Positions 5,215-57,912 of a DNA stretch of 64,000 nt are shown here, piece after piece (positions within the stretch are counted from its first letter, which is position 1; each line of letters opens with the position of its first letter). The stretch spans positions 248,001-312,000 of the forward strand of contig OX597832.1 of assembly GCA_951406725.2 (NCBI GenBank). The letters are read 5' to 3'. The notes beneath the pieces are model-generated. The model had not been told where the DNA came from and made no database searches. It worked only from the letters and a program-made list of their open reading frames with translations. This stretch comes from Octopus vulgaris. Its lineage: Eukaryota. The translations under genes were made by a program, and so were the position numbers.

Positions 5215-6388
5215 ATAATAATAATAATTTACATTATTTACATTTGACAGATATTTATCCTCTTGTTTGTTGTTTACACAACATTTTGGTTGATATACTC
5301 TCCAGCCTTCATCAGGTGTCTTGGGGAAATTTCAAAACTGGATTCTCATTCCTAAGGTATTTTTCGATGTTATTATTATTATTCAGGTCACTGCCTGGAA
5401 TCGAACTCAGAATTTTGGGGTTAGTAGCCCGTGCTAATCACTACGCCATATGCTCGTGGGTAATTATGGAGTGAATTTTAGGGTTTATAAATCTAATATT
5501 TTCCTATCCTTCCTTAATACTCATATCTGCTTGGTCTGCTTAGGCGGTTGTTGTGTTCAAGCATATATGTTGCTTCTTTTAGTTTTTGTATTTTCCAAGT
5601 GGTGTTCTCTGTCTATTATTTTAACTTCATCCCACTGGGGGAGTTGGTCTCCATTTTTCCATACATGATCAGCTATACCTGATTTATCAATATCTCCTCC
5701 TGTCACAGCTTTGCAATGTTCAGCTACCCTTATTTTGATGGGGTGGCATGTTTCACCTTTGTATAACCTACCACACCTGCATGGGATGGAGTACATGCAG
5801 TCTTTGGTCATATTCTCTTCTATTGGTGGTTTTACTTGAAGAAGATATATGCAAAGTGTTGTATTACTCTTGAATACTGTCCTGATGTCATATGGGCTGC
5901 ATATCTTTTGTATCTTTTCAGAGAGGCCTTTCACACAGGGTAGACAGGCTGTGGATAGTTTATTGGTTTCGCCCTCTCTTTTCTTCATAATTAGAGCGGA
6001 TATTATACTTTTGGGGTAGTTGTTGCTTAACAGATCATTATTGAGCTTGATCCTTTCTTTGTGGTGTGTATCATGATTGCTGCTTATATTCTTTGCTCGA
6101 TGTTTTAGGCACTGAGCAATCCCTCTCTTTACACTTTATGGATGGTGGGAATTGAAGTTGAGGTATTGTCCAGTGAAGGTCGGCTTGCGGTGTACGGATG
6201 TCCTGAATCCATACTTGGTGCATGTTTTTGATATGTCCAGGAATGCTAGCTGGTTGTCTTTTTCCTGTTCCACTGTGAACTGTATAGATGGCTTTATTGA
6301 GTTGTGTTAACAATAAACAAGATAAGGACAAATATCCGTCAAATATAAATAATGTACATAATTCCTTATCTCTTAAATATAGAAGTGT
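5215..6388 (-). mobile_element. 5'-truncated Penelope-like element (RT C-terminus + GIY-YIG endonuclease + terminal repeat) with an inverted terminal piece at 6304-6388
   Basis: ORF 5557-5988 has MYSIPCRCGRLYKGET...RVAEH...SGIADHVW (PLE GIY-YIG). Upstream minus-strand frames give NSIKPSIQFTVE, LAFLDI and TFTGQYLNFNSHHP (PLE RT thumb). Confidence 0.9.
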
Positions 6389-6987
6389 ATTATAATAATA
6401 TTAATGGTTTCAAATTTTTGGCACAGGGCCAGCAGTTTTAGAGGGAGAGCATTAATTGAATACATTGACTCCAGTACTACTTGACTGATACTTTATTTTT
6501 CAACCTTGAAAGGTCGAAAGGCAATGTTGAACTCAGGCAGCTAAGCATTCTATCCCACATGCTAACAATTTTGTTTGTTCTTTATGTTATCATTTCATAT
6601 TTTGGCATGAGGTTGAAGTTAATTTATAGCATCGACTCCAGTACTTGAATGTTAGTATGTTTTATCAACCCCAGAGGGGTGAATGGTAAAGTTGACCTTG
6701 ACAGAAATTTAACTCAAAATGTTAATTATAGGAATAAATGCTGCAAAGTACTTCTCCAGTGTTCAAATAATTCTCCAAGCTTGCTACTTAATCGAGTTAA
6801 TAATAACACTAATTCTCATTATATACCCATATCTACACACACACACATACACAGACACACTTCTCCCTCAGTAATGTCATTCTACATTGAACTGTTGTTA
6901 TGGTGATGGTGTCTATGTTACTGGTGGTTGTATTACATCTCTTACATCCAGTGACTAGTTTATTCTTTTACCAAACAATTTTAAACT

Positions 6988-7384
6988 TCTAAGGTATTTT
7001 TCTATGTTGTTATTATTATTATTATTATTCAGGTGACTGCCTGGAATCAAACTCGGAATTTTGGGGTTAGTAGCCGATGCTCTTAACCACTATGCCATAT
7101 ACCCATGGGCAATTATGAAGTGAATTTTAGGGTTTATAAATCTAATATTTTCCTATCCTTCCTTAATACAAGTTTCCATATGCTACTCATATCTGCTCAG
7201 TCTGCTTAGGAGGTTGTTGTGTCCAAGCATATATGCTGTTTCCTTTTGTTTTCGTATTTGTCAGTGGTGTTCGAAGAAGATATATGCAAAGTGTTGCATT
7301 ACTCTTGAATACTGTCCTGATGTCATATGGGCCACATAGTGGTTAAGAGTGCGGGCTACTAACCTCAAGATTCCAAGTTCTAGC

Positions 7385-7423
<39 letters not shown>

Positions 7424-8184
7424 CTGGGATGAGGTGGTGAAGCACGACCTTCGAACTTTAGGTCTCACCGAGGAAATGACTAAAGACCGAGACCTTTGGA
7501 AGTATGCTGTGCGTGAGAAGACCCAGCAAGACAAGTGAGACCATAACCCATGGCCTTAGTCCACTAATGCATACCTTTCCTTCTTGAGACACAAAACTCT
7601 ACTTGTGAAGACCTGTTGAGGCAAGTGAAAATCAAAATCAAAATCGATCAACATGAACGGAAATTGTAGCTGTGATACCAGTGCTGGTGGCACATAAGAG
7701 AACCATCCGAACGTGGCCATTGCCAGCGCCGCCCTGACTGACTTCCGTGCCGGTGGCACGTAAAAAGCACCATCCGATTGTGGCCGTTGCCAGCCTCGCC
7801 TGGCCTCTGTGCTGGTGGCACGTAAAAAGCACCATCCAATCGTGGCCGTTTGCCAGCCTCGCCTGGCACATAAAAAGCACCCACTACACTCATGGAGTGG
7901 TTGGCGTTAGGAAGGGCATCCAGCTGTAGAAACATTGCCAGATCAGACTGGGCCTGGTGCAGCCTTCTGGCTTCCCAGACCCCAGTTGCACCGTCCAACC
8001 CATGCCAGCATGGAAAGCGGACGCAAAACGATGATGATGATGATGATGATGATCGAAAAATACCTTAGGAATGAGAACTCAGGTTCGAAATTTCCCCAAG
8101 ACACCTGAAGAAGGCTGGAGAGTATATCAGCCAAAATGTGTTAAAACAAACGATGTGAATAAATATCTGCCGAATGTAAATAAT
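6988..8184. mobile_element. Third copy of the same PLE family as an inverted pair, interrupted by an RTE 3' fragment
   Basis: 6988-7335 matches 5350-5900 with deletions. The plus-strand arm is 7336-7420 and 8052-8184, with the decayed hammerhead at 8101-8142. Confidence 0.8.
7421..8053 (+). mobile_element. RTE family A, 3' fragment with (GAT)n tail
   Basis: TWDEVVKHDLRTLGL...WKYAVREKT coding end, 3' UTR repeats and tail match 16665-17446. Confidence 0.9.
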
Positions 8185-8254
8185 ACCACACTTCAATTAA
8201 TATCTACTCACTTGGATTCTATAATTTAAACTTCCTGACATGAAGCTTTGCTCA

Positions 8255-8256
<2 letters not shown>

Positions 8257-8332
<76 letters not shown>
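8257..8332. repeat. (CT)n microsatellite; many (TA)n/(CA)n tracts elsewhere (e.g. 3841-3900, 18050-18110, 39590-39646, 58370-58436, 62279-62415, 62646-62708)
   Basis: Direct inspection. Confidence 0.95.
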
Positions 8333-8335
<3 letters not shown>

Positions 8336-10509
8336 AATACACTCAAATAATCTAGTTTGTCAACAAAAAAGATGGTACTCAATAGTTCATGATAAACAAA
8401 CTGAAAATGTGTGAGAGACTGTGTTGTAAATCAGTATCACATCAGTGCAAATATCTTTTTTTCTCTCCATCTCCCTGCAAATATTGAAAATGTGAGTGAG
8501 ACAAGTAAATCCCTTAAACCAAACATTATGTTTAGTATCCATGCATAAAGGCTCTCTCTCTCTCTCTCTCTTACAGACAGACAGACAGACACACATACAT
8601 ACAGACAACTTGCTGCTTCTAAATGGGATTTTGTGACTGTTATTCAGAATATTAATTAATGTCATTGAATATGTCTAAATTTCTCAGGACAATTTAGAAT
8701 TATGCAAAACACAATAATTACTCTGTAAATGATATATCAAACTGCATTAACAGTTGATATATTGTATTGTCAGCAGTCATACTGTAATATCACTATAGTA
8801 TATATCAGTAGGTATACTATATCACTATGCATATTGTACTATTTATTAGCACATAGGGGTGCTTTCTTTTTATTACTTGTAAGCAGTCAATCCAATTGTA
8901 AATGACCATTATATTGTAGAGGCATAGGATATTATAGACATGAGATAAGCCTTGTTTGTTAACAATCATTAGGCTGATGGAACATAGCTAGGACATAAAA
9001 TATGGATCATGGAATAGTTTAGGATGAGATGATTCAGGACTTGAGTAAAATTATTATTGCAATCATCATCGTTACTACAAAAATATTTCTCATTATGGAC
9101 ACCAATTAATTGTTGTCATTTAGAACATTACATAGTATTTAGATATAAATTTTCTGTCAAGTACTTTGAAGTACTTTCAATGTCAGTTTAATTTTTCATT
9201 GTTTTCTGTTGAACTGAGATAGAGAAGGTAATTTGTTATTAATTGTAATCCTAGAATAATAACTTCTGGCTAAAATACATGCTGAACATACTGAAGTGAT
9301 TTGTGTTGTGTGCTTATATGTGTATGTATGTGTGTGTGTTAGTATATGTATACATTTTTTAGGTTGAGGATTTTGGCCACACTAAAGTACAGTATATACA
9401 AGTCATACTACTTCAACAATACCTAACTTTTGATGAACAAGGGAGTGTGATGCCACTGCTCTCAATTGCATTTCTCACTGTGATGTTGGTTTCTCTGGTT
9501 ACACAGATAATAGGTTATCCAGGTGTTTTTTGAATACATTTCCATTTCTCAGTTTCTTTAGCAAAATATTGTAAAGCTGTGGGTTTTCGAACCCTGGCTG
9601 TTGCAGTATATGATCTTGATTTTCCATAGAAGGGTGGGACCTTAAGGACTATGAAGTAACAACCAATTCAGCAATTATTATAGCTCTCAATACCAAATTT
9701 TGGCATGCACCTTTCATGGATCTTCCATGTATAGATAATTGCATATCTTTCCCATCTTTTCTCCAGTAAGTAGAATTTTAATGCTTTCCAATCACTTCCA
9801 ATAGCTTTACTATTACATCAAGACAATCTTCTTTGTGAAGCATTGTTGGATTGTTTCTAGATCTGCTCTTAGTTTAATACAGTTAGGTGACCTTAGTTGT
9901 GAGCAGCAGCCTTGGTGACCGAAGATAAATGTTCTCCACAAAAGCAGCATGGTTTCCTGCTCAGTTGTATTTATATATGGCAAAAAGGAGACTAAATGAT
10001 GATGAGGATGTGTGTGTGTGTGTGTACATATATGTATAATGTATTATATCTACATATATTTATAGGTATCAACAGAAATTTATATCATCATCATCATCAC
10101 TATCATTTACAGGTTAAAAAGAATTTGTTGAGGCATATTTTCTCATAGCTAGATATGCTCTTCATAGAAGACTAGAAATGAATAATCTTGCCTGTCTGTT
10201 GTTGATCATGCTCATTACAACTATCACGTGGTGTATAGACAAGAGTACATACAAATACACATAAAACATGCACACACACACATACACATGTTTGTGTGTT
10301 TGCATATGCCCTTGTGTGTGTGAGTTTAGAGGGATATATTTGGACAGATACCGTGATAGCTAACTCTCAGTTATGTTCTAGGATATTGTTATATCCTAAT
10401 GTATTTAATGTCTATGACTACTAGGAGTTGTCACTTATGCCGTAAATTTCTCTGATGGATAATACCATGTTTACTTCACTGGATGGTAATATTATCTGGA
10501 GTGTATATT

Positions 10510-10809
10510 TGCAATAATTATAATGATAGAGAATATGGAGACTGGTACATCCTCAAAATTTATTTTCTTTTATTTTACAATGTCATATACCATATTTTAT
10601 GGTTACAACAACCTACACATATTTTGAGCAGTTGCATATGCAACCAGGCATAATTTTCTGTGCAGCTTTGTTCAGAGTCTTTCAATCAGCTTGGTTTGTT
10701 GCATAGATCATCATAACCATAAAATATGCTGTATGACATTGTAAAATAAAAGGAAATAAATTTTGAGAATGTACCAGTCTCCATATTCTCTATCATTATA
10801 ATTATTGCA
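10510..10809. repeat. Fold-back element, ~95-bp inverted arms, ~110-bp spacer
   Basis: TGCAATAATTATAATGATAGAGAATATGGAGACTGGTACAT...TATGGTTA is mirrored at 10714-10809. Confidence 0.9.
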
Positions 10810-10900
10810 TGCATATATATATATAAGATTCTGTCTACCAAATCCACTTACAAAGCTTTGGTCAGCCCAGGACTATAGTAGAAGACACCTGTTTTATATA

Positions 10901-12233
10901 CAGGGTATTTGGGCTAAATTTGGTAATATTTTATGTTCTTTTTTAAGAACAGCTTGATGTATTGGTGATCAGTCAACAGTATTGGACAGCATAAAGATTA
11001 AAATTGTAGTTGAGAAAAAGTTAGCTGATATGGAGAACTGGAAACCTTCTGAATATTGGAAAAGAGTTACCAGTATCATGATGATTCATGCTGATTATCA
11101 AAGTGTCGACATGATGACTGCTGCTCAATGCTCTGTGAACATTGTAAAGGCTGTGAGATATGACATGGACAGCTGTAGTGAGGACTACAAAGCCATGATC
11201 AGCAGGAAGGGACACAAAGGGTGTTTTGATAGCACCTGCATGCCAGAATTTATCCAACAACTGCAGGACAAGGTGATGGAAGATCCAATGAAAGAAATTT
11301 GTGCTTTGGTGAGAGGAATGGGTGTTGGAGTAGCTTCTATGAAACTGGTTTTGAATGAAGACTTTTGCTACCACTTGTACAAGAGACACAAGGGACAAAT
11401 TCTGACAGTCAGGGCCCTGGAGAAACACTTGACAAAAGCAAAGAAGCTCCTGAACAAGCTGAGGTATCCTGTTAAGCCAGGTATAATCTGGTTCTTCTCA
11501 GATGAAAAGAACATCTGTCAGGACAAATTGCACAACACTCAGAGCAGCAGGTGACTTGCCTACAATCCATGTGATGTTCATCATCATCATCATCATCATC
11601 ATTTAGCATCCGTTTTCCATGCTAGCATGGGTTCACATATGAAAACCAAGTTACTCCAAGCTGTGATGGTCTTTGGCAGTGTCTCCAGTGAAGGTGATGC
11701 CATGCCACTCCAGATCTTTAAATAGGGCCTTAGGCCCAATTCAGATGGCTATGTAAAGCTGCTGGAGACTGGTCAAACCCTGGCTGGATAGGGATGCTGC
11801 TGGAAGACCAAATGTGTGACAGCAGGATACAGTTCTCTGCCATACTTCAAGAAAGAGTAAAAAGTGGTTACAAGTGAATTTTTATGACTTCGCCAGCCCC
11901 AATTTCTGGCCTCCTAGTTCCCCCAATTTTAATCCCATGGATTACTATGTGTGGGACACAGCTGAAAAACATCAATTTCTGCCTGAAACACCAAGGCCAA
12001 GATCAAGGAGGTGTTTTAAAGATGTTCCCAGGAACACAGAAGCACATGCACCAAGTTCTGGAGCTGTCTCAAGATCATGTTGGAAGCTGAGGACAGCTAC
12101 TTTGAATAAACTGTTTTCTTCCACCCATAATTGAGTTGATATTTTTTATATTTTAAAATATTTTGTGTTTGTATGGGATATTATGTTTTCTTTTGATTTT
12201 ATGTAATCTGTCCAATTTAGCTCAAACACCCTG
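10901..12233 (+). mobile_element. Decayed Tc1/mariner-superfamily element, maT (DD37D) type
   Basis: TIRs CAGGGTATTTGGGCTAAATT / AATTTAGCTCAAACACCCTG with TA flanks. Motifs FFSDEK, QD and WPPSSPNFNPMDYYVW, with 37 residues between the last two Asp. Contains stops and frameshifts. Confidence 0.85.
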
Positions 12234-12245
12234 TATATGTATATA

Positions 12246-12404
12246 GGCACAATCATGGATGTGTGGTTAAGAAGTTTGATTCTCAACCATTTGGTTTTAG
12301 GTTCATCTCACTGAGTGGCACCTTGGGCAGTGTCTTCTACTATAGTCCCAGGTTGACCAAATCCTTGTAAGTGGATTTGGTAGGCAGAAACTGAAAGTAG
12401 TATG

Positions 12405-12442
<38 letters not shown>

Positions 12443-26833: not shown

Positions 26834-27702
26834 ATGTTGATTCCATCTGTTATTGGAGCTGCATTCTGTTTTGTCTGTTTGTGTGCATGTGTGCTTATGT
26901 ATGCACTTATGTATCTGTGTGTATGCATATATGTGTGGAGTGTGTGTGTGTGTATATATGATCATGTGTTTCCATCTCCTTTTGTGTGTGTGTGTGTGTG
27001 TGTGTGCTTGTCTTACCTACAGAATTTTGTATGGTGTTATCCATATAAATCCATGAGGTGGTTATAATCAAAATAAGCAACAAGAATAACTTCGGTAATT
27101 TGGTACAATTGTTTCACGCTACATCATTTTATTAAATGTTGTAAGTATTGCAACAGTTTTAAAATGCTGAGCACTCATCAGCCATTAATAGAGGTTTTCC
27201 ATTAATACATAATTTTCATATCAATTGATAACATTATAGAGGAGGTAGATATATAGACAAAGATGTGGATTTAAATTTTAAGAACATTTAAGATAGTGGA
27301 GTTTATCAACTGACTGAAAAATATTCAGTTGTTTTGAACTGCTAGAAGGATTTGAAATGAGGTAGAGAGAAAGGGTTGTCACACTACAGATGCCTTTTAC
27401 TACTATTTGGCAAACAGATTTAGCATTAGGAAAACTAGATTAATGTCAAATGGTTACAATGACCACTCATAGAGAATGCAGAGATTTTTTAAAACTTATA
27501 TACATCAAGTTTATAATTAGCTGATAGGTATGTGTGTGTGTGTATGTATTTACCTACATAACAGCCTAACAGTGATCTAAATTTATAATTTAGATCACTT
27601 TAAAACAGTCTGTGTCATAGAACCAGTGGTGAGTGGTCTCAGGTAGGCTAACAATATTAACATTTTGTTTTAATATTTTTTTCTTTTTTTTTTTTCATGC
27701 AG

Positions 27703-28898
27703 ATTTAGACGAATTCTTGGCTGAGATTGATGAAGATGTTGAGGGTATGCAGAGCATGATATATTTATTGCAGCAACAGTTAAAAGAGTCCAAAGAACAG
27801 ATGAACCAACTAAAAGAAGAAAATAAAAAGCTCAAAGCTCTTGTTCCTGTAAATGAAACTGAATGTGAACCAGCCAGTGAACAGTCAAGCTCTCCAGCTA
27901 TTTCTAGTGTAGCTAGAACAGAACAATCTGAGACACCAGTAACTGTTGCAGACAATGTGATGTCTCAGCTAGATTCTAACAATGGTACAATTGCAGAAAG
28001 TGTTCAACCACAGGCCCAAGACATACTAACGACTGATGACTATTCCCCACCCATGTTTGTTAATAAAGACAGTAAATACATTGGTGCTACTGATAATGAT
28101 AGTAGTGTAGATAATAATGATGATGATGATAATGATGATGATGATGATGATGATGATGACGATGATGATGATGAGGGTGATAATGATGATGGTGATGATG
28201 ATGATGACGAGGAGGAGGAGGAGGATTTAGAGGAGGAGGAAGAGGAGGATAGTTGTGATAACAACACCATTACCAACACTAATATTGTGGAAAACAACAT
28301 TAGTTTAGCAGAAAATGTTGTTGAAGAAACAATAAATATGGAAATAGATTCTGTTGTTGATAATAGCATTCCTGCTGAGGAACCTTGTGAACTTGACAAC
28401 AAGTGTAAAACTGATGAAGAAGCATGTGACAGATTGACACCTCACAGTGCAGGTTCATCTCCAACTGCGGATCCCAGCTCTTCTGAGACTGACATTACTG
28501 TGTCAACTACACAAATTAGTTCATTGAATTCAGTGGTTGTGCACTCCCCAACAACTGTACTGTCATCTGAAAGGGTGCCATCTCCTTTATTAAATCATAA
28601 CTCTGGTTCCAGTCACTTCCAAACTTCCCCTCTTCCTGTTAAATTTGGCACTTATGAAGTGGATCAAAGTATGAGTCCAATTGCTAAAGATTTAACTGAA
28701 GAGACAGTTGAACAGACACCTATGGATACATCTGAGACTGTTAGTGATGAGGCTTTAACTGCTGAAAGTTCCCTCTTAAACAGCCACAATAACAAGTGGA
28801 CAGACAAAACTAGCAGTAATATTGTTTGTGAAGAGACAAGCCCAGTATCAGGCAATAATGGTACTATATCAGTGATGTCAGAAGATGAAGACAACTAA
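27703..28898 (+). CDS. WTAP: WTAP / fl(2)d terminal coding exon with long acidic low-complexity tail
   Basis: T-rich tract plus AG at 27701-27702. It joins the previous exon in phase (G|AT = Asp) to give DLDEFLAEIDEDVEGMQSMIYLLQQQLKE, like WTAP ELNDFIIQLDEEVEGMQSTILVLQQQLKE. Stop TAA at 28896-28898. The intron 14313-27702 is GT-AG. Confidence 0.95.
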
Positions 28899-36789: not shown

Positions 36790-38206
36790 AGTTATGAGTG
36801 TGTTGTATATTCTTTCATGGTATTATAACAATTTTTCACTGTGATTACTTAACATCACTTCCATTATTTTAATGATCATTAAAATAATGTGTCATAGAAT
36901 AAGGTGTCGGAAGAATAAGGTGGATGAGAAATTTTTTTCCCAACCAAGCTCTTTGATCTCCTGTGATGTGATCTTTGCAGTGTAGGGTCACGCATTGTCC
37001 TGATGAAACATCACTCCTTTTCGATTCACTAAAGCAGGTCATTTTTTTCTTCAAAGCTTGGTTCAAGCACTCTAATTGCTGACAGTAGACTTGAGCATTG
37101 ATTGTTGCATTAGGTGCTAACAATTCAAAGTGAATTACTCCTTTGCAATCCCACCAGATAGAGGGAAGAACATTTTTTCCATGAAGTTCCCTTCTCGGTT
37201 GTGGTTAAACTTTTTCCCTTTTACTAAGTCACTGTTTATGACATTTAACATTTTGATAGAAGACCCGTTTTCGTCCCCAGTCACAAGTCTATCCAAAAAG
37301 GGCAAAATGAGTTCACAAGATTGGAGAGAAGAGCAGTTGTCAACTCAGGATTTGTGGTTGCTTTCGGACAATTTATGAGGCACCTATTTTCCAAGTTTAG
37401 GAACCTTTCCAAGTTGCTGAAGATGACAATGAACAGTTGTATGGTTTGAACTAAGCTTTATTACCAATTCTTCAACTGATAATGCAGGATTTTCTTCAAG
37501 TAATGTCTCAAGGAGCTTATCATCAAACTCAACTGGACATCCTGTTCAATCTTCATCTTCAAGGCTGAAATCTTCACTTCTGAATTTTGCAAACCATCTT
37601 CTGTTAGTTCTTTCATTCAAGCATTCTTTCCCATAAACTGAGTGTATGTTCTGAGTCGCTTCGGCTGCAGAGTTTCTTTTTTTGTACTCATAAAGCATTA
37701 CGTGCCTTAAATGATCTTTGGATACTTCCATGTTAGAAAGGGTTTTAATCAAAGAAATTTTAATTCTATTATTTTGTAAAATGCATAAAAATAATTTTTA
37801 ATTCCATTAGACATTCTAAAATACTATTAAATTTAATTCAATTTTAAAAAAGGTAAAATCACACAATCAAATGAATGATAACAGAGATGAATAATTAAAT
37901 AAAAGAATGAGAACATTACTTCATTGCTGTTGTGTCTGGGGAGAGTCATTTTCTTTTTGTGCCTTATAATGTAACACACTCACCGGTAAAATTTCCAATT
38001 ATTTCTTATTTTTATTTTCCTAAAATTTTCGTTGCGTCTTTTTAGGAAAATAAAAATAAGAAATAAGTGGAAATTTTACCGGTGAGTGTGTTACATTATA
38101 AGGCACAAAAAGAAAATGACTCTCCCCAGACAACAGAATATGAACTCATATAAAGAATCTTGCAAACCAAATCCAAAACGAAATTACTTCATTGCAAAAA
38201 CCCATA
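36790..38206 (-). mobile_element. Decayed mariner, with a palindromic element inserted in its 5' end
   Basis: MEVSKDHLRHVMLYEY...AAEA...RRWFAKFRSEDFSLED, TINAQVYCQQL. Confidence 0.85.
37928..38182. mobile_element. Fold-back insertion (~100-bp near-perfect palindrome plus 45-bp tail) with 13-bp TSD
   Basis: Arms ~37928-38025 and ~38040-38137. TSD ATTACTTCATTGC at 37915-37927 and 38183-38195. The loop holds half of the hammerhead-like motif seen at 26798. Confidence 0.9.
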
Positions 38207-38674
38207 ATCATCAGCTGAAACATAATTTGAAAAACAAAAGAATATCCTAAGAATACAGCCTCAACAGACTTCAGCCATGTCCCTGCTGTATTCTTGACAT
38301 ATTCTTTTGTTTTTAAAATTATGTTTTGTCTGGTGATTACAGTTTTTTTGCAATGAAGTAATGTTCTCATTCTATTTAAAAGATGTGTAAGAAACAGCTG
38401 TAATGAACTGACAATTATCCATTGTTTGTTATTATTGATTTGATTATAATATACCATTAGAATTTATGACACATCGGACACCCTGGAGTATACCAACAAC
38501 ATATAATTTAGGCACTAAATACTCATAGGCTTGGTTTTCTCTGTGTACACAACTGGAATATCCTATTTGATATTTATCAACCATAGGCGGTGACCACAGG
38601 TTTATCCAACCCTACCTGTTGCATATCTTTTCAAATACCTGATTCTATCTGAATCTTTATATATATATATACAT

Positions 38675-39449
38675 ATAGGAGAGGGAAAATTATAAAAAGG
38701 CAGAATGCAAAATTGAAGGTAAATTTAAAAAATGGGTGTATGGAAAATTAACAAAATAATAACTCAAACCGGTTTCATGGCAAAACAAATTTTCAAGATT
38801 TTGAAAGGGAAAAAAAAGAAATTTACAATGTTTTTTTCAAAAAAATAATAATAAAGATATACAAAAATTAAAAAATAAGTATACCGATACATTGTAGAGT
38901 CATGTTTTTTGAGTTCAATAATAGTCCTTGGAAAAATTTCTTTGGAGGATTAAGATCCATGTGATTAAGCATGGTGCTTAGTTTAAAATGTTTGGTAAAA
39001 GAGTGTCAAAACAGGAAATGGGGTAGGAGTTATCCAGTTCCTATGAGTAAGGGGAGACAACTCTGTGGATTTTAAGCTCTTCAATTGGGATGATGGACTT
39101 TTTGTCAAACAGGATGCTTATATTCATTTTTTGTCAGATAGGATGTTAGAAAAAGGAGTATGGTCATCGTGGAGTTTGCATATTAAGATGCGTTTGGAAT
39201 TTTTCAATAAAAAGATTCTCCTTATTGATTCTTTCTTGTGTAGTGATTCCATCTTTACATTGGTAGAAGGGGAATATGTGAAATTTAGGATTTTTGCCTC
39301 TAGCGCATGAGCCTATGTGGCTACTTAGTGGAATTTGACGGTATTCTGGGAGATTTATCGGTTGTTGTTATTTTGTTAATTTTGTTAATTTTTATTAAAA
39401 TTTACCTTGAATTTAGCATTCTGACTTTTTATAATTTTTCCTCTCCTAT
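38675..39449 (-). mobile_element. PLE 3' fragment (GIY-YIG C-terminus) with inverted terminal repeat
   Basis: Minus frame 39358-39164 reads INLPEYRQIPLSSHIGSCARGKNPKFHIFPFYQC...ERINKENLFIEKFQTHLN. 38675-38763 is inverted at 39364-39449. Confidence 0.75.
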
Positions 39450-39584
39450 CATTTCTCCACGTGCGGTCAACACATCCCCACCATTTATTCATTTATAATA
39501 ATAATAATAATAATAATATGGGAATATTATTCCCAACTTACTGGGAAAAATTCAGTTTAGAAATACTAAATCAAATTTCACAAA

Positions 39585-39871: not shown

Positions 39872-40084
39872 GGTTAAACGTATACACACGGGACAATCAA
39901 AACTACTTGTCTCGTGTTTATACGTTCTAACATTTTCAAAATTTATTGCGCAGATGCAGTCCTTTGCTGGCCATAATAATGTGTTTAAATATACACTATA
40001 TTGTATGACTAATATATAGTCTTTTTGACTAAATTTTTTTACACGTTAGACCACTGGAAATATAAATTTTAATTAATTTCCATT

Positions 40085-41952
40085 AGAAAAAAACACCCTT
40101 TATCAATTCAATAATGAAAAAAATAAATTATACCATTTAGAAAAATTACACCTTAGAGAAAGATAAAACATATACTAATGATTAAGCAATGTGCAAAATA
40201 ATGAATAAAACGTATATACTTGGTAGAATAACTACACATGTTTCGTGGCTCTATTTAAGAAATGATAATAGTAAAATCATTTCAATATAAATATAGTCAC
40301 TCTTCAGGTTAAAGATAAAAACAATAAAATAATTAATTAGATAAATTAATAAATATATGTATATAATCTTGTAAAATATGAAATATCTTAACAAGTATAT
40401 TCTTATTTAAATAAAAAATAGAATAAAATGGTATAAATATTTATTATATCTACAAAAGTAAAATTTTGACATATACAAGAAAAGAATAATAAACTATATA
40501 ATTATTATTAGGAAATAAAATACAATTAATTAAAATATTTAAAACATGTATATATATATATATATATAAAATACAAAATATACATTAAGTGAAAATTAAA
40601 TACTATAATTTAATCTATATACATTAAAATAAATTATTAATTATTTTATTTATTTAATAAACATCTAAATAAAATCTTATACTCATTAAGTAATTTATAT
40701 TAAAAATCTTAATGTTAAGTAATATACATAATGCTAGTACAAGCTATAAATATTAGAATTAAAATTAGGAAACGGTTCAAATATATACACACCTATTATA
40801 TAAACTAACTATATTGATATATATGTAGTATCTATAGATTTAAAATTTTACTGAATTATATAGTTGACCAAAATATCAATTAACATTAAACTTATTTACT
40901 CAAATGTAATACTACGTAATAAATATACCACCTAACTATTAAATAATATGTCTTACAAAACTATTTCTCAAATTAAATTATATGTAATACGTTAAATCAC
41001 ATTATAAAAATAATAATAAACATAATAAATAAATATATATACATATCATAACTCATAATTATCAATAAATTATATATAAATTAATATTTTAACAACAATA
41101 ATAATAATAATCAAACATGATACAATTCAAAAGTTAAATAATATTATTAAATAAAAAACGTTACTTAGCTTGTTGACGAATATTATATAACTGAATTTTA
41201 AATGTAAAAATGTAGGTCTTAGCGTTTATAAGAAATTAAATTCATGAAGACGTTATGTAAAAAAATAGAATAAAATTATCAATGAAAATGATGAAAAATA
41301 TTTATTAATGAAAAAGACAAAAAATATTTAAGCTTCAAGAATTAAAAATAGAATAACAAAAGAACTATAAATGACTATTTACTATAAATTAAATACCAAA
41401 TAATTATTACATAAAATATAAATCATATCTACAAGAAATAAATAACATAAAAAGAAATAAGGTTTTATATATACAAAAAAATTAGCTAAATGTACCATAT
41501 AGGTAAATAAATTTATGTTAGTATTTAATTTTAAATGACTATTTACTAAAGTCCAAATAATTAATAAATAAAATATATAAATTAATTTATATTACTATAA
41601 TTAATATATCTTAATAAATATATATAATCATTTATTTATTAGCTAAACCTATTATATAGGTAATTTAATTTGCTTACATTTAATTTTATGTTCCTCTAAT
41701 GAATGAATTTTTCCAACACATAATTGTTATTAAATGATATTTTTTTTAATTCATTATTACACAATGAACAATAATTACTCCCTATACAATATGATTTAGC
41801 CCTACAAATAATCTCATTGTGTAATAATGAATTTTGCACATTACTTAATCATTGGTATATGTTTTATCTTATATTTAATCTTTCTATAAGATGTAATTTT
41901 TCTAAATGGTATAACTTAATTTTTTCATTATTGAATTGATAAAAGGTTTTTT

Positions 41953-41957
<5 letters not shown>
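40085..41957. mobile_element. Very AT-rich non-coding element bounded by ~120-bp inverted repeats, carrying the 40229 hammerhead
   Basis: 40085-40198 is mirrored at 41832-41957. A related terminal piece occurs at 55470-55623. Confidence 0.7.
40229..40311 (-). ncRNA. Type I hammerhead ribozyme, minimal stem III, long stem II
   Basis: Minus strand: UAAC-CUGAAGA-GUGACU...AGCCAC-GAAAC-AUGU-GUA|GUUA. Stem II extends through UAUUUA/UAAAUA and GAAAUGAU/AUCAUUUC. Confidence 0.8.
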
Positions 41958-47969: not shown

Positions 47970-48667
47970 TCACTGGTCTGCAACTTGTATTCAAATAGAG
48001 TGAAATCTATTTGCTGACATGTTGTGGCATAGCACATGTGAAAGAAAATTAAATTACAAATTAAAAGCATCTCTAATAATGTAAACATTATTCTTTTCTA
48101 CTGTAGACACAAAGCTCGAAATTTTTGGGGAGGGGGCCAGTCGATTAGATTAACCCCAGTATGCAACTAATACTTGATTTATCGACCCCGAAAGGATGAA
48201 AGGCAGAGTTGACCTCTGCGGAATTTGAACTCAGAACACAAAGACAGATGAAATACCACCAAGCATTTCATCCGGCATGCTAATGTTTCTGCCAGCTTGT
48301 TGCCTTATAATGTAAACATTATTGGTTGCACATACATAGCATATGAATTTTGTTCATATGCTAAATTTTCTTCAAGATAGCATCCAGAGAAAGCACCCTA
48401 TATGATGCCAAGTTGTCTCTCTTGATCTGTAACAATTTGATGCTCTTTAACATTTGGCGTGGTGTAAGGAGCTTTCCCTGGATGCTATCCCAAAGCAAAT
48501 TTTGGCATATGAACAAGACACATATGCTATGTATGTGTGACCAATAAATGTTTACATTATTAGAGCTGCTTTTAATTTGTATTTTAATTTTCTTTCACGT
48601 GTGTTACAATAAAGCATATCAGTAAAGAGACTCATTCTATTGGCATATTATGTCGCAGACCAGTGAT
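47970..48667. repeat. Old fold-back element whose left arm is split by a SINE
   Basis: 47970-48092 plus 48307-48410 is the imperfect reverse complement of ~48450-48667. A further partial copy lies at 47765-47868. Confidence 0.8.
48093..48306 (-). mobile_element. tRNA-derived SINE with 17-bp TSD (older relatives at 6405-6570 and 6595-6790)
   Basis: TSD ATAATGTAAACATTATT at 48076-48092 and 48307-48323; B box GAGTTCAAATTCC; core GCCTTTCATCCTTTCGGGGTCGATAAAT. Confidence 0.85.
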
Positions 48668-48797: not shown

Positions 48798-48921
48798 CAA
48801 TAGTATTAAGGAATGACCCTGACAGGCCGTTTCAACTCACTTGAAAGAGCAGCTAAAATCAAACTGCAAAATAGTAGTAATTCTGAAACTAAAGGAGAAA
48901 TAAAAACATTTATCTCCTTCA

Positions 48922-49218: not shown

Positions 49219-51586
49219 CTGTATTTACCAGTGCACTGGAGATACTCTCACTTAAGACACACCCCTATTTTACAAAGATATTTTGTGGAAAAAAACAATC
49301 TTAGTATTTTTCATCATACATTTATTGAAAGATATTTTGAAGTGGTCTTGTAAGGAAAATTGTATGATTCTTTGCATAAAATACAATATTGTAAAAATAT
49401 ACTGGAATAAAGTATGAAATCATGTGTAGCTTTACACTCGTCTTTAAAGGAAACTAAATTAAATTTGCCATAGCAAAAAAGAAATATACATTGAATCCTG
49501 GTACATGCAAACAAAAAGCAAATATACTGATGCAAACCAATCACAAAGTAGAATAAATGTGATGAATTCCTATTGATAGTTACAGTTACTCATTCTCATT
49601 GTTGCTATCCATATTACCGGTACTCTCTTCATCATTGGAATTCTCTGCAATAGGATCTGGGTCTTCACTATCTACTTCAAACAATTTTAAAATGATTTCA
49701 CAATTACCACTTCTTTTACAGTGTTCCATGAACTTTTTATCCACTCATACACCTGTGTAATAATAGGCCTCTTCTTTCTTCCTGTTGGTGTCACTTCAAA
49801 ATCTGAAGACTGCATCCACTTGCTCCACTCTTTCTGCATGAATCCTTTAAATGGTTTATTGATTGAAACGTCTAAAGGCTGTAACTGACTGGTTAGGCCT
49901 CCTGGAATTATAGCTAACTGGGTCTTCAAGTTTCCTCTTAACAATCTCAGTTCTATGAGCCCCGAACTGGTCCCAATCTAACAAGGCAGGTTTCTTTAAT
50001 AGCCCACCAGGACACCTGGACCACACTTTGTCAAGCCACAATGACATTCCTTCCATGTCCCTCTTACCTTTTGGGTGGACACGAACATAAATGCCACTGG
50101 GTATCCTTTCTTTAGGCAATGTCTTTCTTTTAAAAATTAAAAAAAGGTGGCAGTTTTGTGCCATCAGCGCAGCATGCTAATACATCTATGTAGTGTGCCA
50201 CATGTTTTAACGGCCACAGTGTTAGAATCCTTGAATTCTACTGTCTTGTTTGAGAGTACATCATATGTCAGAGACTTCGTCCATATTTGCTACCTGTGAA
50301 TGTTCAAAATGAACTTCTTTTCTTCCATTAATGACATACCTGTGAAACTTAAGTATTTGATCTTCATATTCATGGACCTTTTTTTTTGTGCTATTCTTGT
50401 TCTAACCTTCATATAGAGGTTATTTTTCCTCATAAATCTGAAACACCATGATGTTGTCCCCTTAAAATCATTGATATTTCTGTCTTGAATTGTACATAAT
50501 TATTTTAATGGATAATGAAAAGCCCAATTTTCTTTGGTCTATATAACCCATGTTTTTAATTATTCTACTAGTTCAGACCACTTTACAACTACCCTATGGA
50601 GGCAGTGTTTGCTATGTTTAGCAGCTTTCAGCTGCTCTTGTTTCCTCCAAGTCCTTACCATTTTCTCAGTTGGTGGTGGACCAAAATACTGAGCAGCTAC
50701 TCTATTACCATGGTCTTTTGCATATGCTATGACATCTGGTTTGAATTTGATGTTATAACAGTGCCTTTTTTGTTTTTCAGCCATGGGTTTGGATTCTGCA
50801 TGAAATTTGCCATAAATAAACTTACTGGTACAATATTGGAAACTGTTCCCCAACTCTTGCCTCCTCTCAGATTAACTGTATAGTTGTTTATAATTTGGGC
50901 AAAAGAATTGCTATACAGGATGTGAAACTTCTATTACTAGGTGTGATGTTTTGCATTACCATGACAGGCCACAATGTGGAAAATAAGGAAAAAAAGACTA
51001 AAGAGCCAAACACAAATGAATGATCAAGAAAGGAACACAACAAGAAGAGGCACTGTTGTAAAAGTGAAGCCTCCTGGACATCATCTGATCTGATCATTGC
51101 AAATAGCTGTCAGGTCGATGAAAGTTTATTAACTTTCCTTTCAAATTTCTAGGAGCATTTTTCATTTAGATAATAAACAAATGTTTCTTAAAGATTACCC
51201 AGTCATTAAATAATGTAAACCCATGCTAGCATGGAGAATGGACGTTAAACGAACGATGATATATCAGGTGTGAGTTATGTATGCTGAGGTTGGAGGTAGG
51301 TGAAATGATGTGAGCTTCTTTCATAACTGCCAACATATCGTAAGCAATTTTTCGTAAGTTTGTGATAATTTGACTTGTTTTCAATATTGTAATAATTTGG
51401 CTTGTTTTCATTATTTTATTATCAGCAACAATTTTTGTGCCTAGGGAACTTACCCAATATGCTCATCCAGCTCCCTAGCCTACAGCACTCGGTCTCCCAT
51501 CTGTAATACAGCCACCTTAGACACAGGGCAATTTCTGGATACTTTTAAAAATAAGAAAAGTGCATTTAATCTGCTGGCAAATACAG
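49219..51586 (-). mobile_element. Decayed pogo/Tigger-like transposon with Brinker-type N-terminal DNA-binding domain
   Basis: TA-CTGTATTT ... AAATACAG-TA termini; YNIKFK.DVIAYAKDHGNRVAA..FGPPPTEKMVRTWRKQ, PALL.WDQF.AH, IIPGGLTSQLQPLDVSINKPFK. Confidence 0.88.
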
Positions 51587-52252
51587 TAAATTCTTTATAT
51601 GTATACATGAATGTTCATTTGAATATTTTCAGTTTTTATTTCTCTCTCTATCCCTATATATGTTTACATGCATATGAATAAGTAACAAGTGAAGGACAAG
51701 TGTCCTTAGTCTAACCTAGTGAGGTACCTCAACTTAAATACCTAATTCAACTGAATCTTACTTATATCTTACATGAATATGTGTATGTATATTTCATATA
51801 TCAAGCCCAAGTGTATTTATTTATTTATTTGCATCATTATTTATGTATTAGTTCACCTAGATTCCTGTTATACCCACTCTTTACTTCGCAAAATTAGTCC
51901 TCAATAAAGATTTCAGAGAGTAAGCTTAAATCATTTGAGTACTACAAAGTGTTTTCTACATTGAGCATTACTGGATCTCATCTGCTGACTCTCTCATCAT
52001 CATCATCATTTAACATTCGCTTTCCATATTGTCATGGATTGGATGGTTTGACTGAGGACTGGCAAGCCAGGAGGCTGCACCAAACTCCAGTCTGATCTGG
52101 CAAGGTTTCTACAGTTGGATTCCATTCCTAACACCAACCACTCTGAGAGTGTAGTGGGTGCTTTTTATGTGCCACCAGTCAGGCGGAACTAGCATAGACC
52201 ACGCTCAAATGGTGCTTTTTATGTATCACAAGCACAAGAGCCAGTCAGGCAG

Positions 52253-52287
<35 letters not shown>

Positions 52288-53170
52288 GCGACCTCATCCT
52301 TTCCCCTTAGTCGCTGCCCTCCCATCTCATATACATGACATTAATCACGCCCTTTGCCTCTTCAATTCCTTCACCTTCCCTCCCGGCCATTCATACTTCC
52401 TTTTCACCATGGACATAAAATGCCTGTACACTCTGATCTCCTACAACGACGGCCTCTTAGCCCTCCAATACTTCCTCAAACATTATCCGACCCCACACCC
52501 GGCACTTCCACCGTTCTCTACCTAGCAGAACTCGTTCTCACCCTCAACTGCTTTACATTCCCAGGAGAGATTTACCAGCATCTCTGGCGTTGCTATGGGA
52601 AGGAGAATGGACTCCATTTTGCTTATTTTTTAGTTATGTTGAGGCCCAAATTTTCTCACAGTTCTTCAGACTGACTCCAGAGCTATACGGTCACTATATA
52701 GATGACCGTATAGGCACTACCTCCCTCTCCCACAAACAACTCTCCAGTTTCATCTCTTTCATTTCTAACTTCCACCCTCTTCTCGAATTCACCTCTACCA
52801 TCTCTGATACTTCTGTAAACTTCCTCAATATCTCTCTCTCCATTGGTCCCCTCACCCACTCTCACCACTTCCACTTTCTTTAAACCCACGGACTCCTACC
52901 TCAAATTTTCCTCTTCTTTTCCCTCCCACACCAAATGTGCCATCTTTTCCAGTTCCCATGCCTGTGCAGCCAGGACCAGGATTTTGAGACCCAGTCCCAA
53001 TGCCTGGCCCTCTTGTTCATGCATTGTGGATACCCTTGCCCTAACTGTCCTTATCTGCACTTGTCAAATCGATCATACTAATCTTCCAACCGCATCCCCT
53101 TTCCTCTCTTTTTTCACCCCTCTACCCTACTCCTTTGTTTGAAGATCCTGTGGGCCTTCTGTCACCTCCA
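52288..53170 (+). mobile_element. Decayed Penelope-like RT fragment (probable 3' end resumes at ~54690-54942)
   Basis: FTMDIKCLYT, LAELVLTLNCFTF, LYGHYIDD, FHPLLEFT..ISDTSVNFL and FKPTDS motifs typical of PLE RT. Confidence 0.8.
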
Positions 53171-53174
53171 GCTA

Positions 53175-54260
53175 GTTTGACAGTCGTTAACTAACAGCTC
53201 TTTGTTTTACAACATTGAAGAGTTACAGCATCACTTTTCCAAATGCAATTCATGGTGCCAGAGTATATTGGGAGTTTCCTCTTGTAAATCAATTCTTGTG
53301 AACCCATGGATTGATAAAAAATTCATGCTGTTTATGAATAAAAGTTACGTCATGGAACCCCAGTCAGCTCAAAACATCAATGAGATGTTTGGTGAAGATG
53401 TGGTAAATGAGTGCACTGTATGCCGATGGTTTGAGAAGTTCCATTCTGGTGACTTTACTCTTGAAAATCAGCCCTGTGGTAGACCTGAAACCAAGGTGGA
53501 TAATGATGAGCTGGAAACTGTAGATATATCTCAAACTTCATGTGAGTTAGCAGTAAGGTTTGATGTTTTGATTCCAATTTGACCATCTGAAACAAATCAG
53601 CAAGGTAAACAAGTTGGACAAGTGGGTACCACACGAACTGAATGAACATCGAATGACATGTTATCTTGAAACTTGCTGCTCTTTGCTGTCACAGCATAAA
53701 AGCGAACCATTTTTGCATCGTATTGTTACATGTGATGAAAAATGGATTCCTTTCAACAATAGCATGCATTCTGCATGGTGGTTGGATAAACACAATCCAA
53801 AAAAGAATATTCTCCAAAAAAAGCTAATGCTGTCTGTTTGGTTTATCCAGCACTGGTGTCTTGGTAAGTCAATTACAGCAGATGTATACATCAACCAACT
53901 GGATGAAATGATGTGTGAAGTTGCTATTAAACAACCAAGATTAGTCAGTAGAGACAAGCCAATTCTCTTGCAAGACAATGCTTGACCACATGTTACACAA
54001 AGAACACTACTCAAGTTACAGGAACTGAACTTGGAAGTACTCTGTCATCCATCATATTCACTGCACCTTGCACCAACTGACAATGACGTTTTCTAGGCAT
54101 TAGACAACTTTTTGCATGGAAAAGCTTCAAATCTGAACATGTAAAAACAGCCTTTCATGATTTCATCACCTCTTGCTCTCCAGAATTCTTCGCTACAGGT
54201 ATAAATAATCTACTGATAAAATGGCAAAATTGTGTTGATAATTTAGGTGTAGTTCAAAAT
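53175..54260 (+). mobile_element. Decayed mariner nested in the PLE
   Basis: WVPHEL, IVTCDEKWI, LLQDNA, degenerate HPPYSPDLAP. Confidence 0.88.
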
Positions 54261-54800
54261 CAGACATTTTATTCTTAATGACATGATATTTCTGTTAACA
54301 AAATGTGCACACACACATATACACAATCCCACTCCGTCTATGCACACATGCCAACACATACACTCACACACACACACAACCACACACATCCATTCACACA
54401 GCCACACCCACCCATTCTCACACCATCTTCAGACTGCCTCTGCCTCACTATTGACCCTTCCATCCACGCACACATGCAAACACAAACACACACTACCACA
54501 CCCACCCATTCACACATGACACTATAGCTGCTGACCTTTCAAAGTGACACTAACACACATGCACACAAATCCTACCACACACCCACACACTCACCACATA
54601 TGCACACACACGCAATTACTACTACACACACACTACCATACATACACACTCTACCACACACACACATACACTGACCATTTTCACACTCACCTGTCCCAGA
54701 AAGCATTTCTCTTCTACTTCTAGTTACTTTAGAAATGTAACTGCATGTGATTGTTGGCGATTTTTTTTTCTTCTTCGTCTTGGGCTTCTTTGTTTTTCCT

Positions 54801-54835
54801 GTTTCTGAAGAAGAGCTATGCTCAAAACATAAAAC
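54801..54835 (+). ncRNA. Decayed minimal hammerhead at the PLE 3' end
   Basis: GUUU-CUGAAGA-A-GAGC-UAU-GCUC-AAAAC-AUA-AAAC. Two CG>CA changes would restore GAAAC-GUA. Confidence 0.6.
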
Positions 54836-54944
54836 TACTACTCTTTTCCTTCTCTGAACGTCTTATTAATACATTGTTTGTGCTACATCCACACACACAT
54901 TTGTTTTTTTTTTTCTTTTTCTCTGTGTCTTTTTGAATTGACTA

Positions 54945-54975
<31 letters not shown>

Positions 54976-55050
54976 GTAATTTGAGGGAATATTATTCGAA
55001 ACTTACAGGGAAAAATTCAATTTAGAAATACTAAATCAAATTTCACAAAA

Positions 55051-55442
55051 TCTCTCTATATATAAAGCTGAAGTTGTCTGTGTATGGCAGGTTTGGCAGC
55101 CTTCAACTAACACTATCTCCTCCGAGACCCTGTGGCACAAGTTGACCAAAATTGAGAGTATGATAGAAGAAGGCTTGTTCTTCCTTCCGAAGAAGAAAAA
55201 ACTCAAATCGGACCATGTTAACACCAAAAATTATTTACATCAAAAAGATGATTTTTTTCTATGAAAATCCCGATTTTTTACGATTTTTTGACTTCTCTGT
55301 CGCTATTTTTCGGTGTATTTCATTCAGAAAAATGTTCACTTAAAGAGAATAACAAGCTACATAATGCAAAATTTTCACTTTTCAAAAATTCCAATTCCAA
55401 AGGGTCAAAACAAACATGAGCAACGCCGGGTGATACTGCTAG
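55051..55442 (+). mobile_element. Non-autonomous Helitron-like element
   Basis: A|TC 5' end, GC-rich subterminal motif, CTAG|T 3' end, no TSD. An empty paralogous site is visible at ~39585. Confidence 0.8.
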
Positions 55443-57912
55443 TATAATATATATAATATATATAATTACAAAAAAACCCACCTTTTATCAATTCAAAATG
55501 ATAAATTAAATTACACCACCTAGAAAACTACATATAATAAAAATATTAAATATAGGATAAAAAATATACCGATTAAGTAATGTGCAAAATAATAAATAAG
55601 ACGTATATATTTGGTATAATAACAAATATATATATATATCAATTAATAATTAAGGGTACTAACAGACAGTACCAGCATGTTTTCACTTAAATACAAAGGT
55701 GAATGCAGGCAAATGAATAAAAAAAAACCTAAGACCCTGTATTAATGACAAAAATAATCAGATGTTACATGCCAATTTGATACATGAACAGTCAAGAAGG
55801 AAGGTGAAAAAATAGATTTATACAACTCTTAAATATAAGTTAGTTTGACTGTGGAAAATGAAGAAGGTGAAAATAATGCCAGCTTTTGTTGAGTCCTTGG
55901 AAACAGTATCAGAAGGCATCAAGAGGAATATAAAGGAAATCAAAATAGAGTGGCCAGTAGAACTGTAACAAAAGGTTTGCCTCCATGGCCAGAAGCATCA
56001 GAAATGTGTTAAAGTATAGATAGTTGAAAAGAACAGAAAACATGGCCCTGTAGGCTGCAGGTAGCAAGCCCATTAAATAATAATAATAATACCAGTAGTA
56101 TAGAGATACAGACATAGATTCCTATTCTTATTCTGTGCATTCCCGGTGTTTTACATATCCAATCCTTTCAGAGAGCTCACTATTTCTTAGCACTTCATTA
56201 TAATATCCAGCTGCACCCATAAAAGCCACTTCACTAAAAAATATCAAGAATCGACATTTACTAATGTTGTCAATCAAGTTTTTCAAGACACAAGGTAGCT
56301 GATTTAATTGTCTATGTGTGTATACTAATTCTCATTTGGTTTGTGGTATGGTCTGAAAATATCATTATCTAGTCTTAATTTGCATCAAGAAAATTAACAT
56401 TGATAAAATTTGTCTGCTGTAATAATAAATCCTATTTCTGTTGTTAACTACTTTGTAGATTGCACTAGGTGCACATTTTTCATGGTACCAACACAAGAGA
56501 GGTTGAATAAAGAGACCTTAAAGATTTACACATTCTTGCACATTTTCTAACTCCTCTGTAGTGTATACCGGTGCATTTGATAAAACCAGCACTAAAGAGA
56601 TTGTCATATTGAGGGAGCATGAAACTTTAGCTTCCTGTTTGGCACCAATACACATGGTACTAGTGTCCAGCTCACAGGACAATGTAGAGAATACTCAGAG
56701 AGCTAAGATATGTAGACCAGGAAGGAGCAATAGGAGGTGAAGGGAATGCAAAAGTGGGCGAGGGGAGCAAGTAAGTGTCAAAAGTACTCAATAATCTAGG
56801 GTGTGTACTTTTGCTCAGATGAACAAGGGGTGGATGGCTAGGTGGAAGATAGAAGCATTATTGTGATGTTATTTGGGGTGAAGTTAGATAGGTGATGACT
56901 GACTACAAGAGAAGGGTGAGGGTGAGTGATGGAAAGATAAAATGTAAGTGATGAGTGTCAGTAGAAGTGACCCTGTGTGGAGGGAAGAGTACATTGTCTA
57001 GTAGTGGAGAAATGTGAAGAGGGCAAAGAGGATGCACTAGAGAAAAGGAATTCTAGTAGCATGAGGATGACTCTGTGCAGTCTCTTATACATTGGCCTAG
57101 TGAAGGGATGAAAGTGGACTGATGTAGTCTCCAATATATGTGAGAAAATGTATATATACATTGAATGTCAGTGTTTAAGATACACTTCATTTTCAAAATT
57201 TAATAGAATCTACAGACAGAATTTAGTTTTATGAATACCTGCCAACTGATGACTGTATTGGTACATGCATAGGAAGCAAAAGAATTGCAAACATCAAGAA
57301 ACATTTCATTTGGTATTTGTGCACATCCTTGCTCAATGGCTGCCTCCATTTCATCAACTGTTGCTAGTTTTGTTGCATAAACTTTGCTGGTGAATGCAGA
57401 GGGTATTCTACCAAATTTCTTTGTCCAATTTACCTGTTTGGCAAAATCTTATTAATGTAGACTCTTACATTACTATGGTATTGTGAGGGTGCCCCATCTT
57501 GCAGTAAATGAAACTCCACATCTTCAAAGTCTGTGATAATCTGTCATGCTTGGCATGACAGATTGTCACAGCAAGTTCAAGTAAAGGGGACTAGTTATAG
57601 TACCATTAAAAAGAAACGCTCCAATTAATTCTATTCATAAGCTGCACTATATTATATGTAACTCCTAGTAAATTAACATTATGTTCCTTCTGTGATTCTC
57701 AGGTTGCACATTTCTGTTTGAAACTTCCTCCTAAACAGTCTTTGCATTTTTAACAGCACTTTCAAATGTTCAGTAGCACTTTGAGATAAATTCTCTTTGT
57801 TCAAAGATTAGTCTGGCTCCTTTCTCTATTTCCAGTGGGTTAAATCTAAAAGGAAGTGAAAATTGAGATGTCACCTATTAAGAACGTGTATACATTTTCT
57901 GGAAACACCCTG

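Follow-up and report, generated by a model that had tools for sequence, protein, structure and literature searches.

Predicted hammerhead cut sites and the 5′ ends of Penelope-type repeat copies in Octopus vulgaris

Whether the minimal hammerhead ribozymes of animal Penelope-like elements (PLEs) cut in vivo is an open question, and it is raised by a 64,000-nucleotide stretch of the Octopus vulgaris genome (contig OX597832.1, positions 248,001 to 312,000; the whole stretch is called the window here), in which fold-back junctions and truncation points of four repeat families lie at or near predicted hammerhead cut sites. The original prediction, made from the letters of the window, named four cases, one each from family A (5215-6388), family B (40085-41957 plus 55465-55623), family C (the 37928 fold-back) and family D (38670-39495). 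Do these junctions record ribozyme cleavage, and is cleavage the origin of PLE inverted repeats? In two of the four families, B and D, copies that start at or just after the predicted cut exceed expectation, which likely records occasional self-cutting. On balance, we favor the explanation that the pieces are inverted and 5′-truncated copies of four hammerhead-bearing Penelope-type families, most of which span the cut, with a minority in B and D made from self-cut RNA by run-off of the reverse transcriptase (RT).

In all that follows, junction positions are counted from N1.1, the base directly 3′ of the predicted cut, which is position 0. Copies were sampled through exact-match anchors downstream of the site (5119, 86, 3523 and 92 matches for A, B, C and D), and the 5′ end of each sampled locus was called by anchored extension. 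Once window copies and near-duplicates were removed, 116 of 117 copies were kept for A, 97 of 103 for B, 100 of 107 for C and 102 of 103 for D; the sample covers nearly every exact match for B and D, and mostly the first part of one contig (C1) for A and C. Sets of matches found by DNA similarity were excluded from the end counts due to their bias toward long or junction-matching copies, and for B and D only exact anchor matches were retained from them, the anchor lists being complete there (86 and 92). Ends per nucleotide at risk at -3 to +10, as compared with -30 to -4, were 28/1095 versus 2/1744 in family D (p=4.5e-10), 25/745 versus 10/905 in B (p=0.0015), 12/1509 versus 4/2725 in A (p=0.0016) and 11/988 versus 11/1558 in C (p=0.19), with best change-points at -2 in D, -12 in B, 0 in A and none in C. 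The sampled signal is a step with a shoulder, many ends lying at +2 to +20, and not a single spike. The sharp breakpoint peak that had been proposed as a check was therefore found only in part: there is a surplus beyond chance in B and D, a marginal one in A and none in C, and no sharp peak common to all four families.

A simulation of uniform truncations with real divergence and real flanks left the ratios nearly unchanged (corrected values of 19.5 for D, 3.4 for B and 5.3 for A), demonstrating that the end-caller does not produce the step, but exact calls were obtained for only 40-61% of ends. This bears on the possibility that chance and composition explain everything, short cDNAs being commoner, AT-rich stretches joining AT-rich targets, and the four cases being selected coincidences. 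Such an account holds for C and nearly for A, it fits the counter-examples within the window described below, and the stretches just 3′ of the site in B and D are indeed AT-rich, with (TA)n targets. We nevertheless regard it as quite unlikely for the whole, as the hazard climbs toward the site from the 3′ side (from 1.3 to 3.4 %/nt in B and from 0.8 to 2.7 %/nt in D) and then drops to about 0.2-0.3 %/nt over equally AT-rich upstream sequence, and the simulation rules out a calling artefact. Separately, a family C peak (9/30) in a similarity-based set vanished in the unbiased set.

The finer structure of the B signal comes from a search of the 2.8-Gb assembly for copies departing from the family just upstream of a six-position window, with rows classified by hand. 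Among all 43 rows for family B (451 anchors), 15 ends were placed at 0 and 6, 4, 3, 0 and 9 at +1 through +5, with three rows ambiguous and three not ends; the spike thus holds 15 of 37 ends at -1/0 (p=0.02 with -1 and 0 pooled, 8e-5 unpooled), and 8-10 ends were counted among the 13 rows of the upstream control (351 anchors). Nine of the 15 spike loci are fold-backs, two are direct re-primings and four are solos; the recurrence of one donor position in three junction types speaks for a cDNA with a defined end. Clean breaks at 0 are found in three copies of the GUA/GUCA sub-lineage (L235, L250 and L357), and no B end falls at +4.

Several observations weigh against self-cutting as the source of these ends. 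The rates from the genome-wide search are calculated with assumed capture fractions of 0.3-0.42; for B they come to 4.5 %/nt (with the 15 ends spread over -1 and 0), 1.8 at +1 to +4 and 1.4 at -11 to -6. In family A, about 18 true ends among the first 100 of 415 rows at 0 to +5 (10,219 anchors) and about 35 among the first 100 of 142 rows in the -13 to -8 control (9,918 anchors) translate to 0.33 (0.20-0.52) versus 0.23 (0.16-0.31) %/nt, a roughly 1.4-fold difference with overlapping intervals, no spike and the highest count at +2, not 0. As this larger set outweighs the sample, family A shows at most a mild preference. Family C gave 51 ends besides the window's own, distributed 7/8/10/4/9/13 over +2 to -3, which a uniform model with chance T matches fits well (p=0.53), at about 1.0 %/nt and close to the 0.5-0.85 on either side in the sample. 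The family D search stood at background (31 versus 23), and in its sampled set +1 to +20 is T-rich, with only 40% of simulated ends called exactly. Within B itself, the sampled hazard is still raised to -12; eight of the 15 spike ends carry a C at -1, which is N17 of the GUC sub-family, and these may stop at -1, where stem III has its base; and about half of the 15 share the same 2-3 nt microhomology with +19 to +21, such that those junctions are perhaps not independent of a +19 to +21 hot spot or of one amplified ancestor. In addition, in the available text of PMC11167929 RNA-seq reads are not found to end at the site, and cleavage is reported as dispensable.

The main alternative to be drawn from these points invokes no cleavage at all: the fold of the hammerhead makes RT pause, at about +4 for stem I and at -1 for stem III, and the junctions are set there by a few strong microhomologies. 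The distribution of ends, more a +1 to +20 shoulder than a single spike, the eight B ends that could sit at -1, the recurring junction with +19 to +21, the continuation of B ends to -12 around the palindromic stem III and the gathering of ends at hairpins elsewhere are all as pausing would have them. Against this, no B end lies at +4 and none was called at -1, three copies break cleanly at 0 where the base at -1 should be A, the stronger stem II gathers few ends in A and D (0 at -10 to -4), and one chimera is blunt at both of its predicted cuts. We therefore consider pausing unlikely as the full explanation, though a rival of some weight, and continue to favor self-cutting in a minority of B and D templates.

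That chimera, at locus L373, deserves description on its own. In both arms, the 5′ half of another hammerhead, ending in GUC, is joined to position 0 of family D with no microhomology, and the stem I strand of that hammerhead finds no pairing partner in the D letters behind it. The same hammerhead occurs again at L069, where it runs on into its own complementary 6-bp stem I. Judged from the letters of this one event, the simplest reading would be that two cleavage products were ligated, or that RT jumped from the end of one to the end of the other; it is a single event among 76 ends at -3 to +10. It is possible, though we put it forward only tentatively, that germ-line cutting by PLE hammerheads is recorded twice, as run-off cDNAs at N1.1 (about 9% of site-reaching B copies) and as chimeras of 5′ and 3′ products such as L373. 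The chimera (L373:4051-4174) lies inside a near-perfect fold-back with a 10-nt loop, and the second copy spans L069:2223-2270.

How do the four junctions of the window itself stand with respect to the predicted cuts? The relevant features are as follows.

2706-3193, no strand assigned: family A fold-back with a 12-bp target site duplication (TSD); both arms extend far past the site, a counter-example.
5215-6303, minus strand: PLE-type long arm of family A with the end of the RT, a GIY-YIG-like frame, a tRNA-like head and the hammerhead; 3′ end at about +64, without tail.
5275-5320, minus strand: predicted minimal hammerhead of family A with CUGAUGA core and GUU triplet; N1.1 is 5279, and G12 and C15.2 are decayed in this copy.
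5385-5456, minus strand: tRNA-like head with A- and B-box-like motifs recognized by eye; the main 5′ boundary of family A.
5557-6135, minus strand: 192-aa frame with a GIY-YIG-like motif recognized by eye; weak match to a PLE open reading frame (ORF).
6301-6388, plus strand: inverted arm of case 1, the inverse of the 3′ end of family A, start -3 to 0; has the tail missing from the long arm.
37915-38195, no strand assigned: family C fold-back with a 13-bp TSD (37915-37927 and 38183-38195).
38040-38182, plus strand: right arm of case 3, templated start at -3/-2; N1.1 is 38043.
38670-39363, minus strand: family D long arm with a GIY-YIG fragment (39176-39367), the hammerhead and the 3′ end.
38761-38802, minus strand: predicted family D hammerhead, U3-A8 core variant; N1.1 is 38765.
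39364-39495, plus strand: inverted arm of case 4 with tail; start at +2 (or -6).
40085-41830, minus strand: family B element, body 16% G+C, coding frame not found.
40229-40312, minus strand: predicted family B hammerhead with CUGAAGA core, GUA here and GUC in most copies; N1.1 is 40232.
41831-41957, plus strand: inverted arm of family B, start near +33; a counter-example.
55465-55623, minus strand: solo family B copy of case 2, start exactly at N1.1.

Case 2 is the cleanest: the solo copy aligns to 40082-40232 and ends at 55623, exactly position 0, as had been claimed. In case 1, the 3-nt microhomology to the RT (AAC/GTT) is there, and five intact RT copies read GTGAAC/TCAAT across the join (the slash marking the join); as AAC/GTT is common to the RT copies and the arm, the start, previously placed just after the GUU site, can lie anywhere from -3 to 0. 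Case 3 does begin within about 3 nt of the UUU/UAGG site, with a templated start at -3 or -2. Five Ts precede AGG in its right arm. Two of these have a template in the partner arm and four in the arm itself, one T being common to both; were the start at 0, two Ts would have to be untemplated, and a 3′ product alone cannot supply the templated start. An older fold-back (37890-38390) encloses this C fold-back in one arm, and has at its center another decayed hammerhead-like 3′ half, with an inverted arm starting about 3 nt past the putative site. Case 4 lies within about 3 nt of its site if one body substitution is accepted (start at +2, the simpler reading) and at -6 if a 3-nt deletion is accepted instead. 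Both loci for which TSDs had been noted do have them, 12 bp long at 2706/3182 and 13 bp long at 37915/38183. The original prediction made a selection with its four cases and omitted counter-examples from the same window: the inverted arm of B's own element (41831-41957) starts near +33, and in the family A copies at 2744-3183 and 8052-8190 the start lies far upstream of the cut.

Where most copies start is also away from the cut. Of 62 family A copies anchored in the tRNA-like head, 22 end within 9 nt at its 5′ edge (about -185 to -177), and seven of 20 fold-back junctions join an arm starting at -170 to -178. The main boundary in family C is at -44 to -40, with 41 sampled ends at -60 to -31 that peak at -44, -42 and -40, next to a small hairpin and some 10 nt upstream of stem I (e.g., L152, L153 and L259). 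Candidates for its origin are the start of transcription, splicing to an acceptor there (-42 is preceded by CAG) and a stop at the hairpin. A cap-derived G at the -44 boundary was considered and found unsupported (6/14, only two clearly untemplated). These main boundaries of A and C are several times stronger than any cut-site signal, and the templates that gave them are uncleaved. They are evidence that this genome keeps traces of RNA ends or hairpins, and they bound the cleaved fraction in A and C to about 1-2 percent; as most ends lie elsewhere, most copies derive from uncleaved RNA.

Of 49 A pairs and 24 D pairs of fold-back arms, 43 and 21, respectively, have a tail on just one of the two arms; in 15 pairs of each family it is the arm whose 5′ part is shorter. 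A tailed arm of this kind cannot have been copied as DNA from a partner that has no tail. A tail was also seen by eye in family C. Both A and D have the inverted 5′-truncated copy, one-arm tail and TSD by which PLE insertions are recognized. In case 1, the short arm is tailed and the long arm tail-less, which means that the long arm did not serve as DNA template for the short one. This asymmetry upholds two priming events in the proposal of two RNAs primed on opposite strands of one target; arm-to-arm divergence did not tell snap-back from two templates (0.097 versus 0.094 in A, 0.112 versus 0.139 in B, 0.081 versus 0.089 in C and 0.064 versus 0.099 in D), nor one RNA from two. For close-spaced B fold-backs, with arm starts 7-21 nt apart, snap-back of one cDNA fits equally well. 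D fold-backs (L291, L309, L363 and L380) often have reiterated AT-rich filler between their arms, as if RT re-copied a T-rich template end.

In its strongest form, the original prediction makes every inverted arm a full cDNA of a 3′ cleavage product and has PLE inverted repeats arise in this way. The four window cases, the tail asymmetry and the B spike speak for it. Fold-back arm starts, however, are spread from about -900 to +100, most of them far from the site, refuting it as a general rule; most ends lie elsewhere, many at +2 to +20, and give no support to the pieces being in general full copies of 3′ products; at the site C is flat, and 41 of its ends lie at -60 to -31; and, from the accessible parts of the two papers, Naiads without canonical hammerheads form the same inversions (PMC8557442) and hammerhead mutants insert normally in vitro (PMC11167929). 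Since arm starts are widespread and Naiads invert without the hammerhead, cleavage is not the cause, and we hold this full model to be very improbable. What survives of the proposed genomic record of in vivo cleavage is a likely but minor one in B and D, near-absent in A and absent in C.

The order of events that best suits self-cutting as a minor source would begin with the element's protein priming cDNA on each of the two strands of a single target and starting internally at two sites, one of which gives a tail and the other none. Two cDNA 3′ ends, or one folded back, would then be joined through 1-4 nt of microhomology. Where the template is a 3′ cleavage product, the cDNA would stop at 0, and trimming before joining would yield the +1 to +20 shoulder. 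Cleavage would be a minor branch, supplying one of several 5′ ends of the RNA, and inversion would not need it.

That the four motifs could cut is predicted from their anatomy, which is that of minimal PLE hammerheads. A minimal hammerhead is present in aligned copies of each family, of type I, with a CUGANGA/GAAA or U3-A8 core, stem II, a palindromic stem III and stem I: CUGAUGA with GUU in A, CUGAAGA with GUA or GUC in B, and U3-A8 cores with UUU or UU(U/A) triplets in C and D. Stem I across the site has 5 bp in A, 4 bp in B, 3 bp in C and up to 5 bp in D. GUC occurs in 281 of 351 B copies, the majority sub-family; stem I of B has changed on both sides in three of 26 copies, probably one lineage, and in D a mismatch persists in 11 of 47. 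A search of the window against Rfam gave no hammerhead.

Assignment to a PLE type differs among the families. For D, a 551-aa ORF with RVT_1 (2.8e-6) and GIY-YIG (1.4e-5) matches window 39176-39367 at 45% (E=4e-8), in keeping with an endonuclease-containing (EN+) PLE, the EN part being what is shown for D itself. The 192-aa frame of family A has a weak BLASTP match to a PLE ORF (E=3e-4), its GIY-YIG-like motif was seen by eye, and a Pfam search gave no match. Searches of 151 and 170 upstream stretches for B and C found no PLE protein match continuous with the element, and an alternative genetic code tried on the B body gave nothing convincing; with no coding frame, B and C are at most non-autonomous PLE-type elements. 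Self-comparison of the window revealed no tandem array of at least two hammerhead monomers for any of the four families, and sampled family A loci are mostly solos and fold-backs.

Two further features of family A were observed. The tRNA-like head upstream of the hammerhead occurs at 5385-5456 (minus), 2950-3030 (plus) and 7030-7110 (minus), and most copies reaching it stop at its 5′ edge, like a short interspersed element built into the pseudo-long terminal repeat (pLTR); ARAGORN found no tRNA there. A 3-nt deletion removing the GUU triplet is common (about two thirds of the first 100 rows of a genome-wide search that is rich in site deletions; compare window 2782-2800), as are many stem II deletions, with 2- and 5-nt deletions also seen at the site; the triplet deletion could be a ribozyme-dead sub-family or jumps across a nick.

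Much of this architecture is already known. In the portions available of PMC8557442, PMC3846280 and PMC4209133, canonical EN+ PLE insertions have a pLTR with a minimal hammerhead, an inverted 5′-truncated copy, a 30-40 bp tail and a TSD, and the octopus families have the same anatomy, including the U3-A8 variant, an extra base before stem II, a palindromic stem III and opposite-strand motif pairs; PMC4209133 describes these hammerhead features, U3-A8 among them, with low activity in vitro. Unlike the present analysis, these papers, as far as their accessible text goes, explain inversions by self-priming (proposed in PMC3846280) or EN resolution, without mapping 5′ ends to the cut. The accessible text of PMC11167929 describes, for Poseidon PAc in vitro, both strands cut and extended and two internal RT starts that give the tail, with uncleaved RNA as the main template, as we envisage here; unlike Poseidon, for which that text gives no in vivo trace of cleavage, B and D have a genomic end surplus at the site. 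A self-cleavage site marked in genomic 5′ junctions, variable through microhomology, is known from the hepatitis delta virus-like ribozyme of R2 (PMC3774820, available text), where cleavage makes the obligatory template 5′ end, unlike the small minority of copies, short dead pieces, seen here. Non-LTR retrozymes (10.64898/2026.07.22.740005, in the part available) are likewise non-coding hammerhead sequences mobilized by PLEs, as non-coding B and C may be compared to, and they form tandem arrays, unlike the solos and head-to-head fold-backs of the window. No mapping of PLE 5′ ends to the hammerhead site was found in our literature search, which covered neither subscription papers nor supplements, where such data may exist.

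The rest of the window includes further long fold-backs of other repeat families (60438-60532, 60851-61224, 61317-61957, 10510-10809 and 48304-48563), three of which cluster within 1.5 kb. A 421-aa frame with an acidic tract at 27633-28898 (plus strand) has a resemblance to the last exon of a WTAP/Fl(2)d-type gene. A 354-aa transposase frame at 1069-2133 (plus strand), lying between 39-bp inverted repeats (920-958 and 2170-2208), is what we take to be mariner-like.

For PLE biology, the result removes cleavage as the cause of the inverted repeats, and singles out family B as the one to assay. If the explanation favored here is true, a family-dependent surplus of ends at N1.1, strongest with a GUC/GUA triplet, would be a readout of past ribozyme activity obtainable from sequence in any genome. 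And if the reading of the L373 chimera holds, retroelement families would have a way to exchange ribozyme heads, by joining the 5′ product of one to the 3′ product of another.

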